From the UHGV virus genome UHGV-0143632: a DNA stretch of 24,923 nucleotides; one strand, 5' to 3'. A program made the position numbers and the translations under genes. This DNA comes from a virus. Below the pieces are notes generated by a model. It worked only from the letters and a program-made list of their open reading frames with translations. It was not told the origin of the DNA and ran no database searches. This document shows, in pieces, positions 5,094-5,830 of the stretch; within the stretch, counting starts at the first letter, position 1, and each line of letters begins with the position of its first letter.

Positions 5094-5099
5094 ATCCAA

Positions 5100-5345
5100 C
5101 AAGAAAGCCCCTCCGGAGAGGGGCTGGAGAGTAGCGCTATGTACCGTTCATGCATGGTGCAGGGTGCCTCCCGGTGAGTTCAGTATCAGCACCTGAACCC
5201 GCACCAGAAAGGATAAGGGGTGTGACCAAACACCTGTCGCTGATATGCCCCTCCGCACAGGGGGATTCACCATGCCATATTTTTTTAACAAACTTCCCGC
5301 TGGCCAGACAATAATCGCCAGCCTGAATTGTGAGTAACGTGGCAT
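5100..5345 (-). repeat. Repeat unit A of a tandem, roughly 240-bp structured non-coding module; candidate small RNA ending in a minus-strand hairpin terminator
   Basis: 3' hairpin AGCCCCTC-(TCCG)-GAGGGGCT at 5106..5125. Shares long blocks with unit C (catggtgcagggtgcctcccggtgagttcag; gggggattcacca...tttttaacaaa...ccagacaat). Internal ORFs are not conserved in frame between copies. Confidence 0.5.
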
Positions 5346-5371
5346 TTTACGGGAAAACTGTTTTCTGCAGT

Positions 5372-5583
5372 AAAAAGGCCCGCCGGAGCGAGCCTGGAAG
5401 GATAGCGGTCATGTGATGCCGGTTTCCCGGTAACTCAGCATCGGTATCTGAGTCAACGTTTTCTCTACTGGGTCATTTCCGATACGTTCCGCCTTCCGGC
5501 AGACTTTCATCACGTCAGAAAATATAGCACCCTGAGTAACAGGACAGTACTCAGAATTCAGGAAACTGTGACACATCCTGCAC
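5372..5583 (-). repeat. Repeat unit B (diverged copy) of the same module; candidate small RNA with minus-strand terminator
   Basis: Hairpin at about 5377..5395 followed on the minus strand by TTTTT; shares the cccggtaactcag...tctgag core with units A and C; contains further short stem-loops. Confidence 0.4.
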
Positions 5584-5830
5584 AGAAAAGCCCCTCCGGA
5601 GAGGGGCTGAAGTATAGCCTAATTTCTGTCTGTCGCATGGTGCCAGGTGCCTCCCGGTAAATTCAGCCTGGCTACTGAATTTGCATGTTCGCTGGATCAT
5701 ACACTTTGCCAGATGCCCCGCCGCTGAGGGGGATTCACCACGCGATGCAATTTTTAACAAATTCTCCGGCAGCCAGACAATCATCAAGCTGTGGAATTGT
5801 GAGGTATTTAAAAATTTCGCAGCCTCTTGC
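5584..5830 (-). repeat. Repeat unit C of the same module; candidate small RNA with minus-strand terminator
   Basis: Hairpin GCCCCTCCGGAGAGGGGC at 5588..5605 followed on the minus strand by TTTT; homologous to unit A across most of its length. Confidence 0.5.

Follow-up and report, generated by a model that had tools for sequence, protein, structure and literature searches.

The viral genome UHGV-0143632, of which we analyzed a stretch of 24,923 nucleotides (nt; the window), contains a set of three related units in the same orientation (minus strand) at positions 5097–5830, flanked by a gene for a Q-like antiterminator on one side and an esterase gene on the other. These units, named A (5098..5311), B (5371..5529), and C (5582..5780), represent a known family of small RNAs (sRNAs), STnc100/EcOnc27/PasD, which is an ordinary finding in itself, and their analysis added features of the family that appear to be undescribed. 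We regard it as probable that they are three tandem, independently transcribed, paralogous, and trans-acting sRNAs of this family with different seeds.

Assignment of the units to the STnc100 family

A preliminary description of the window had reported three related minus-strand units in this interval, with long blocks shared by A and C and a diverged unit B, and had interpreted them as duplicated non-coding sRNA genes without being able to name them. A repeat search returned a three-copy repeat family at the unit ends (5099–5135, 5369–5405, and 5582–5618) and several long blocks common to A and C, all three units were accommodated in one MAFFT alignment, and the period of the array is 213–270 bp. 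The missing name was supplied by an Infernal scan against Rfam (release 15), as had been recommended. The STnc100 model (RF02076; model positions 1–206, gathering score of 47 bits) matched unit C at 5773–5580 with 138.7 bits (E = 7e-31) and unit A at 5304–5095 with 129.9 bits, in both cases over its full length. These units pass the gathering score and are members of the family, whereas unit B (5544–5369) fails it with 30 bits (E = 2.7e-4) over a full-length match. The relationship of the three units and the distant position of B (30 bits vs. 130 and 139 bits for A and C) are thus borne out by repeats, alignment, terminator scan (see below), and Rfam scores, and the interpretation as sRNA genes is supported by the family match, covariation, promoters, and the loss of an open reading frame (ORF) in a variant.

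For further searches, we built a covariance model from homologs, termed R1, which carries 25 instead of 26–27 base pairs (one pair of helix P2 is missing). It scored 91 bits for unit C, 86.8 bits for A, and 36.1 bits (E = 2.6e-7) for B. Judged by its R1 score and its retained helices, unit B is an STnc100 homolog or diverged paralog, and a non-member by Rfam's criterion; PasD1 and PasD2 likewise score below the STnc100 threshold (41 and 38 bits).

Among the relatives of unit A is an STnc100 copy located about 75 nt downstream of stx2B, which overlaps the Hfq-bound sRNA EcOnc27 or sRNA103 (PMC12370729, PMC12711010); this RNA is supported by northern blot and Hfq cross-linking and analysis of cDNA (Hfq-CRAC) (PMC4104026, PMC7873438). 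Unit A occupies the position of EcOnc27 in Stx2 phages and is 81–88% identical to the copy downstream of stx2B in enterohemorrhagic E. coli; both adjoin the esterase, face a convergent element, and are alike in their strand relative to Q, promoter, and terminator. In contrast to the Stx2 phages, the locus studied here contains no stx and no intact tRNA genes, three tandem copies are present instead of one, the linkers differ in their last ~10 nt, and unit B scores too low for the family threshold.

The second known branch consists of PasD1 and PasD2 of enteropathogenic E. coli (EPEC) E2348/69, which are homologs of EcOnc13. According to PMC8550237, these RNAs of 172–173 nt are seen on northern blots and have targets determined by RIL-seq, their seed lies immediately upstream of their terminator, and the Hfq chimeras are formed via the 3' region. 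A common ancestor of PasD and STnc100 has been proposed (bioRxiv 10.64898/2026.05.13.724894). The PasD RNAs share with our units the fold, a promoter of their own, a 5' end located at the first P1 bases, and the location, since PasD2 lies between Q and the esterase and PasD1 between Q and the holin/lysis genes. However, outside of the core they show little sequence identity to A, B, and C, with only the core motifs common in the alignment, divergence has affected their own P5 and the 3' strand of P1, and the PasD seed CCUUGUGAG is absent from the aligned units A, B, and C. No PasA was found downstream of the esterase by BLAST.

Structure of the 5' domain

All three units share one fold. It consists of a 5' domain of about 110–125 nt, in which a closing helix P1 surrounds P2, a variable insert, P4, and P5, and is followed by a linker and the terminator. 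Comparing homologs from IMG/VR and GTDB, we observed that the P4 loop is complementary to the 5–9 nt that directly follow P2 on its 3' side, resulting in an H-type pseudoknot that the Rfam consensus of RF02076 does not contain. The two strands are UAUCAGCG (3' of P2) and UGCUGAUA (P4 loop) in unit A, CUGGC and GCCAG in unit C, AUCGG and CCGAU in unit B, and AAUGAUC and GAUCAUU in PasD, and in other copies, e.g., CCAGUC, CUAGGC, or ACUGGAUA is found together with GACUGG, GUCUAG, or UAUCCAGU, respectively.

The helices and the pseudoknot co-vary among the homologs, as revealed by the covariation analysis recommended in the preliminary description. Over 61 non-redundant sequences, the complement to the own loop had a mean length of 6.46 nt, compared with 4.51 ± 0.14 nt if the loops were permuted (0 of 5000 permutations). 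In a MAFFT alignment of 29 diverse homologs that had not been fitted to a structure, 87.5% of the cells were paired vs. 35–50% for slid partners, 21 of 33 pairs had changed on both sides, including all six pairs of the pseudoknot, and none of 500 shuffles attained the observed values of pairing and covariation. After fitting 48 sequences to R1, 95.6% of the cells paired and 17 of 25 pairs had changed on both sides; these counts refer to the structure lacking one P2 pair, and those from the unfitted alignment to the full, correct structure. Even unit B has retained every helix through compensatory changes. A pseudoknot in the STnc100 5' domain appears to be undescribed, and none is mentioned in the preprint on PasD (bioRxiv 10.64898/2026.05.13.724894).

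In unit C (fold z-score of −3.4), the domain extends over 5744–5634, with P1 at 5743–5736/5642–5635, P2 at 5732–5716, P5 at 5657–5643, and a pseudoknot between strand a (5712–5708) and strand a' (5672–5668) in the loop of P4 (5682–5659). The domain of unit B (fold z-score of −2.95) spans 5516–5410 and comprises P1 at 5514–5508/5418–5412, P2 at 5503–5488, P5 with a GAAA loop at 5430–5419, and the pseudoknot strands a (5484–5479) and a' (5444–5439), the latter in P4 (5454–5432). For unit A, the corresponding positions are 5276–5151 for the domain, 5275–5268/5159–5152 for P1, 5264–5248 for P2, 5174–5160 for P5, and 5245–5238 and 5191–5184 for a and a' in P4 (5200–5176).

A topological variant of the domain occurs in two other loci (L118, 1430–1534; L008, 3247–3351), where the usual pseudoknot strands form an ordinary hairpin (GAUACC...GGUAUC) and a short separate hairpin then occupies the position of P4.

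Transcription signals and coding capacity

In 53 non-redundant upstream regions, we found a −35 motif TTGAC and a −10 motif TAAnnT at a constant distance. Because of this constant spacing, transcription would begin at the first bases of P1, and this predicted start agrees with the mapped 5' end of PasD2. Units A and C both contain TTGTCT and TAAAAA separated by an 18-nt spacer (A: 5311–5306 and 5287–5282; C: 5780–5775 and 5756–5751), and unit B has an extended −10 motif (TGcTATATT, 5529–5521). The predicted transcripts extend from about 5275 to 5098 (~178 nt) for unit A, 5515 to 5371 (~146 nt) for B, and 5744 to 5582 (~163 nt) for C. The module size of roughly 240 bp given in the preliminary description holds for the repeat unit, but not for the RNA, because each repeat comprises a promoter of about 40–60 bp in addition to a predicted transcript of about 145–180 nt.

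As had been described before, every unit ends in a minus-strand G+C-rich hairpin followed by a T-run (hairpins at 5125–5106, 5395–5376, and 5608–5589; whole terminators at 5125–5098 in A, 5395–5371 in B, and 5608–5582 in C). The terminator scan yielded 11 terminator-like sites in the region compared with 1.5 expected from shuffles. Intrinsic terminators were also detected downstream of at least 96 of 136 surveyed domains, nearly all at a distance of 10–60 nt, and this count is a lower bound because perfect stems were required, which missed the terminators of L047, L016, L010, and L082. Between domain and terminator lie linkers of 15–26 nt (5151–5126 in A, 5411–5396 in B, and 5634–5609 in C), which are mostly unpaired in the folding ensemble and differ in sequence among the three units. 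Their 3' ends are largely unpaired and rich in C and U (CUCUCC, CCUUCC, and ACUUC), and judging from these motifs, they could pair with Shine–Dalgarno-type sequences.

Six ORFs of 55–97 amino acids overlap the units, and some genome annotations by the Prokaryotic Genome Annotation Pipeline (PGAP) list a 'hypothetical protein' in the array, which would be expected if the units were small-protein genes or degenerate fragments of a coding gene. None of the six ORFs matched Pfam, they are not conserved between the units (in line with the lack of frame conservation noticed earlier), and only the ORF of unit B matched a PHROG family, phrog_23557 of unknown function, for which the conserved DNA accounts. 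The same ORF has lost its ATG in a close variant (L012/L054), where P2 is kept by compensatory substitutions. Because of the missing Pfam matches and the loss of an ORF start while P2 is retained, we regard the units as RNA genes rather than decayed coding sequences; the coding alternative, which the preliminary description had named as the case that would speak against its own interpretation, is left with next to no probability.

The units might also serve as passive terminators or insulators of the late operon, give rise to short transcripts of the pR'-tR' type (as lambda 6S RNA or StxS, which initiate at pR' directly after Q and end at tR'), or represent a DNA-level repeat, in each case without any RNA function. 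Their terminators are indeed co-oriented with late transcription, the conserved block coincides with the 5' domain, and lambdoid phages recombine at conserved boundary sequences. However, compensatory changes are found in each helix as well as the pseudoknot and show that the RNA structure is under selection, every unit has its own conserved promoter, and northern blots reveal homologs as discrete RNAs (PMC8550237, PMC4104026). The suggestion of pR'-tR'-type transcripts in the preliminary description is not supported, because the tR'-like terminator is located elsewhere (6154–6122), the unit promoters lie about 300–1100 bp downstream of it, and the predicted unit transcripts start 370–840 bp past it. 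We therefore consider a purely passive role highly improbable.

The domain as a leader of kilR and dicB

Searching the window with R1, we found a fourth copy of the domain at 18355–18484 on the plus strand (48.7 bits, E = 1.8e-10; 31 bits with Rfam STnc100). This copy lacks a terminator and follows a DicF/KilS-like sRNA with a hairpin and T-run at 18300–18340 (Rfam DicF, 29 bits); its 3' end precedes the Shine–Dalgarno sequence (18507–18510) of kilR by 22 nt and the ATG (18517) by 32 nt. The kilR gene matches phrog_294 and has its stop at 18738, and its induction by H2O2 and nalidixate has been reported. The copy forms P1 (18355–18363/18476–18484), P2 (18367–18382), P5 (18461–18475), and a pseudoknot between a (18387–18393) and a' (18444–18450) in P4 (18433–18459). 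Compared with A and C, its helices P1, P2, P4, and P5 and its pseudoknot have changed by compensation, and its unpaired sequences are unchanged.

Equivalent copies are present in E. coli K-12 MG1655 (NC_000913.3), one in the Rac prophage between kilS and kilR (1418390–1418262, minus strand; L244, 2891–2763; R1 score of 45.9 bits) and one in the Qin prophage between dicF and dicB (1649454–1649581, plus strand; L248, 17455–17582; 47.5 bits). Neither of them is annotated, and no copy was found in the DLP12 prophage of K-12. In these loci, the domain begins 20 nt past the annotated 3' end of dicF, or shortly after kilS, and ends 27–32 nt before the start of dicB or kilR. The leader copies represent the same domain as the units, scoring 46–54 bits with compensatory changes in all helices, but they differ from the units in lacking a linker, a terminator, and a clear promoter of their own, and in being part of the mRNA of the early-left operon. 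Further Rac-like and Qin-like prophages contain the domain as well, and a query comprising the DicF-like sRNA, the domain, and kilR (18280–18740 of the window) was matched by 4620 of 5426 complete E. coli genomes. The use of the domain as a leader of kilR and dicB, which encode toxic inhibitors of cell division, is apparently undescribed, K-12 included; the papers on KilS (PMC8175672) and on dicBF regulation (10.1101/2023.04.14.536235) mention no structured element there. The domain is thus a separable module that forms the 5' end of sRNAs in some contexts and the leader of mRNAs in others.

Further copies without terminators precede small ORFs or other sequences. Three of them (L023, 2237–2342; L058, 4892–4996; L059, 12253–12365) are found 79–127 nt upstream of small ORFs of 61–63 amino acids that start with M(K/E)EGFYWI and represent a recurrent coding context.

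The two contexts, one with a terminator and one close to a ribosome-binding site (RBS), would also fit a transcription-terminating riboswitch, in which the domain acts as an aptamer and a variable expression platform controls whether transcription continues into the esterase and lysis genes; the apparent sRNAs would then be prematurely terminated leaders. The domain is a conserved, structured element with covariation, as expected of an aptamer, and its architecture is aptamer-like in having a closing helix and a multi-helix junction with invariant nucleotides, besides a pseudoknot and a peripheral insert that varies, and unit A is located ~205 nt upstream of the esterase start. However, nested minimum-free-energy folding, the only kind of folding used in this test, showed that removing the terminator costs 12.75 kcal/mol in the real sequences and 11.26 kcal/mol in controls with shuffled domains (n = 32, p = 6e-4). 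Because the loss of the terminator is more costly with the real domain, the latter offers no antiterminator. By the same type of models, the domains in the kilR and dicB leaders close on themselves without pairing to the RBS, and the RBS of dicB, the only one with a valid accessibility value (the statement on kilR is taken from predicted structures), does not lose accessibility relative to a shuffled domain. Moreover, units C and B each precede another promoter-bearing unit rather than a gene, and a convergent terminator separates unit A from the esterase. With no mutually exclusive antiterminator in its expression platform, a terminating riboswitch is disfavored, and we consider it very unlikely.

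Distribution and modularity

The array, as an 851-bp segment, is 100% identical to a part of Escherichia phage PhiR5_2, whose recorded host is E. coli K-12 MG1655. Of 5426 complete E. coli genomes, 568 (about 10%) carry 80% or more of the segment, mostly without annotation; the PGAP annotation is either blank or, in some genomes, lists the protein mentioned above. Tandem arrangements are common, since 16 of 100 surveyed viral loci contain 2–4 copies on the same strand, mostly 219–267 bp apart, and several of these represent arrays of the A-B-C type. The PasD copies are megabases apart, and the PasD preprint attributes them to superinfection instead of tandem duplication (bioRxiv 10.64898/2026.05.13.724894). 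In the STnc100 branch with its adjacent copies, local tandem duplication with seed divergence clearly happens.

The 5' domain is nearly invariant among copies from E. coli, Klebsiella, Kosakonia, Raoultella, Phytobacter, and Atlantibacter, whereas linker and terminator are freely exchanged; in L042 and L052, an STnc100-type domain is even joined to a PasD1-type terminator. The much higher conservation of the domain compared with seed and terminator, together with the common occurrence of arrays of 2–4 copies, appears to be undescribed. A scan of genome contigs with a gapped pattern gave mostly chance matches (~500 expected in 596 Gb), and among these matches, the enterobacterial loci alone held up with R1.

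In seven loci (L014, L085, L006, L030, L064, L083, and the copy at 654–768 of L016), the domain is followed by a conserved element of ~110 nt ending in ...CCUGGUAAAUCGGUAGCUCGGACUAUUAGGUG in place of a terminator, which may be another structured RNA.

Genomic context and comparison with other systems

The units lie co-oriented downstream of Q and adjoin the esterase, which is the prophage location of STnc100/EcOnc27. The Q-like antiterminator is encoded by the ORF at 6940–6314 (minus strand; phrog_753, E = 3.5e-68) and the esterase by the ORF at 4893–2890 (minus strand; DUF1737/SASA/DUF6645), which is of the nanS-p type (sialate esterase). Both matches confirm the flanking genes given in the preliminary description, which had also equated the site with that of the tRNAs and stx in Stx phages. 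This agrees with the Stx2-type phage 1720a-02, whose equivalent interval contains three tRNA genes (Met-CAT, Arg-TCG, and Arg-TCT), stx, and a single STnc100 unit.

A tRNA-like remnant is present at 5923–6049 of the minus strand, which scored 26.5 bits with the Rfam tRNA model (below threshold) and was not called by ARAGORN; its acceptor stem, D-arm, and T-arm are intact, and ~74 nt replace the anticodon region. A tR'-like intrinsic terminator (GGCCUCGGCAGAAAUGUCGGGGCU with a subsequent U-run) is located at 6122–6154 of the same strand, some 160 nt past the stop codon of Q. The region of a pR'-tR' short transcript, i.e., the position of StxS, would be 6154–6313, apart from the three units. Farther away, the minus strand contains an immunity RNA cluster of the P1/P7 type in a lambdoid context (9414–9612), consisting of a C4 antisense RNA (75 bits), a1/b1 targets (46.9 bits), and isrK (75.8 bits); just downstream of it, the ORF at 9360–8686 (minus strand) is annotated as an antirepressor in phage PhiR5_2.

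The terminator of unit A is faced by a convergent plus-strand element at 5030..5093 with an intrinsic terminator stem at 5065–5084 and a T-run to 5093. It is ~90% conserved at the equivalent position of the Stx2-type phage 1720a-02, and the repeat search revealed a degenerate remnant of it upstream of unit C (5826–5842). This arrangement resembles the sRNA 'dyads' EcOnc27+AsxR and EcOnc06+AgvB (Tree et al. 2014), in which the terminator of a late-strand sRNA faces a terminator-bearing plus-strand element between the moron site and a conserved downstream ORF, and 5030–5093 is located where the AsxR/AgvB-type partner lies in these dyads. However, the late-strand partner is triplicated here, and no Rfam match to AsxR or AgvB was found at E ≤ 10 in 4850–6350, nor at the convergent element of the Stx2-type phage. 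We also rejected the units themselves as anti-sRNAs of the AsxR/AgvB type (RF02703/RF02702). Those RNAs are 51–60 nt long with a conserved 3' part of 42 nt and run antisense to the late strand, unlike the units, which are on the late strand, have predicted lengths of 145–180 nt, and lack an Rfam match. A type III toxin-antitoxin array (ToxI-like) was rejected as well: such arrays consist of repeats of ~34–36 nt directly upstream of a gene for a ToxN-like endoribonuclease, whereas the units have a period of 213–270 bp, their own promoters and terminators, and an esterase or KilR encoded downstream.

Proposed function

The units occupy the 'moron' site of the lambdoid late region, between Q-pR'-tR' and the nanS-p-type esterase plus lysis genes, and we propose that each of them is transcribed from its own sigma-70 promoter, starting at the first base pairs of P1. 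By homology to PasD and EcOnc27, the RNAs would be made in the lysogen and associate with Hfq via terminator and U-tail. The linker, as the region matching the PasD seed, would base-pair with mRNAs, and because the three linkers differ, the array would provide three related regulators on a common scaffold with different target sets. In lambdoid phages, Q-modified RNA polymerase reads past terminators during lytic growth, and it would read through all three unit terminators as well. Adjacent paralogs with a common scaffold and partly different sequences are also known from OmrA/B, PrrF1/2, and Qrr1-5, which makes an effect on dosage or a diversification of targets possible; yet their seeds are conserved, whereas in the units the seed region varies and the 5' domain is conserved.

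Several observations weigh against these proposed seed-based regulators. No validated target exists for STnc100-type RNAs, and the effects of sRNA103 on fimZ and espA are without a known mechanism (PMC7873438). In Table S2 of the EPEC RNA-seq data on differential expression (PMC8550237), pasD1 and pasD2 show log2 values of −0.18 and 0.55, and pasA, pasB, and pasC fall by 2–7 log2; because the PasD levels are little changed, Hfq may not stabilize these RNAs. The putative seed is the least conserved part of the units and the 5' domain the most conserved one, which is unusual for a base-pairing sRNA, unit B lacks the conserved unpaired sequences of the family (AAU, UNNGC, and AGGCA), and the domain is used in cis as an mRNA leader as well. 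The main function may therefore reside in the domain instead of the linker.

Following this line, the conserved pseudoknotted domain would be the active part that binds a specific partner, and pairing by the linker would be secondary. Candidate partners are a host or phage protein, a small molecule, or the 30S subunit, the latter via an invariant GGAGG in P5. In this case, the terminated units would be decoys or sponges in high abundance or would carry the module, which would act in cis on kilR and dicB. P1, P2, P5, and the junctions are nearly invariant in sequence across genera while linkers and terminators are swapped, and the leader copies before kilR, dicB, and other ORFs, which have no terminator, keep the unpaired AAU, UAUGC, and AGGCA while all helices have changed by compensation. 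The small changes of the PasD levels in the same table and the frequent arrays of 2–4 copies, which fit a dosage effect, point in the same direction. On the other hand, unit B and PasD persist with altered loops, PasD is expressed and forms its Hfq chimeras via the 3' region (PMC8550237), and the conservation may be inflated by the frequent recombination of lambdoid phages. We rate this explanation of the units as unlikely, and base-pairing sRNAs with different seeds remain our preferred reading.

A module of 110–130 nt exists that is common to the STnc100, PasD, and EcOnc27 sRNAs and to the leaders of kilR and dicB. Its pattern of conservation suggests a function of its own, such as binding of a protein, ribosome, or ligand, or an effect as a stability element. 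As a tentative and rather doubtful extension, it could be an autonomous RNA module of lambdoid phages that controls the stability or translation of downstream sequences by binding a partner, with the arrays partly acting as carriers or decoys; a specific partner and a regulatory role of the module are speculation.

Taken alone, the assignment of the three units gives a name to an unannotated interval in about 10% of the complete E. coli genomes. It also shows growth of the family by local tandem duplication with divergence of the seeds, for which the PasD survey had argued otherwise in its own subfamily. The corrected, pseudoknotted structure of RF02076 unifies STnc100, PasD, B-type, and leader copies and would improve their annotation. 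Via the common domain, virulence-associated prophage sRNAs, including those encoded downstream of stx2 in the hemolytic uremic syndrome-associated region, are linked to the regulation of kilR and dicB at the post-transcriptional level, and because the domain is present in K-12, its function is directly testable.

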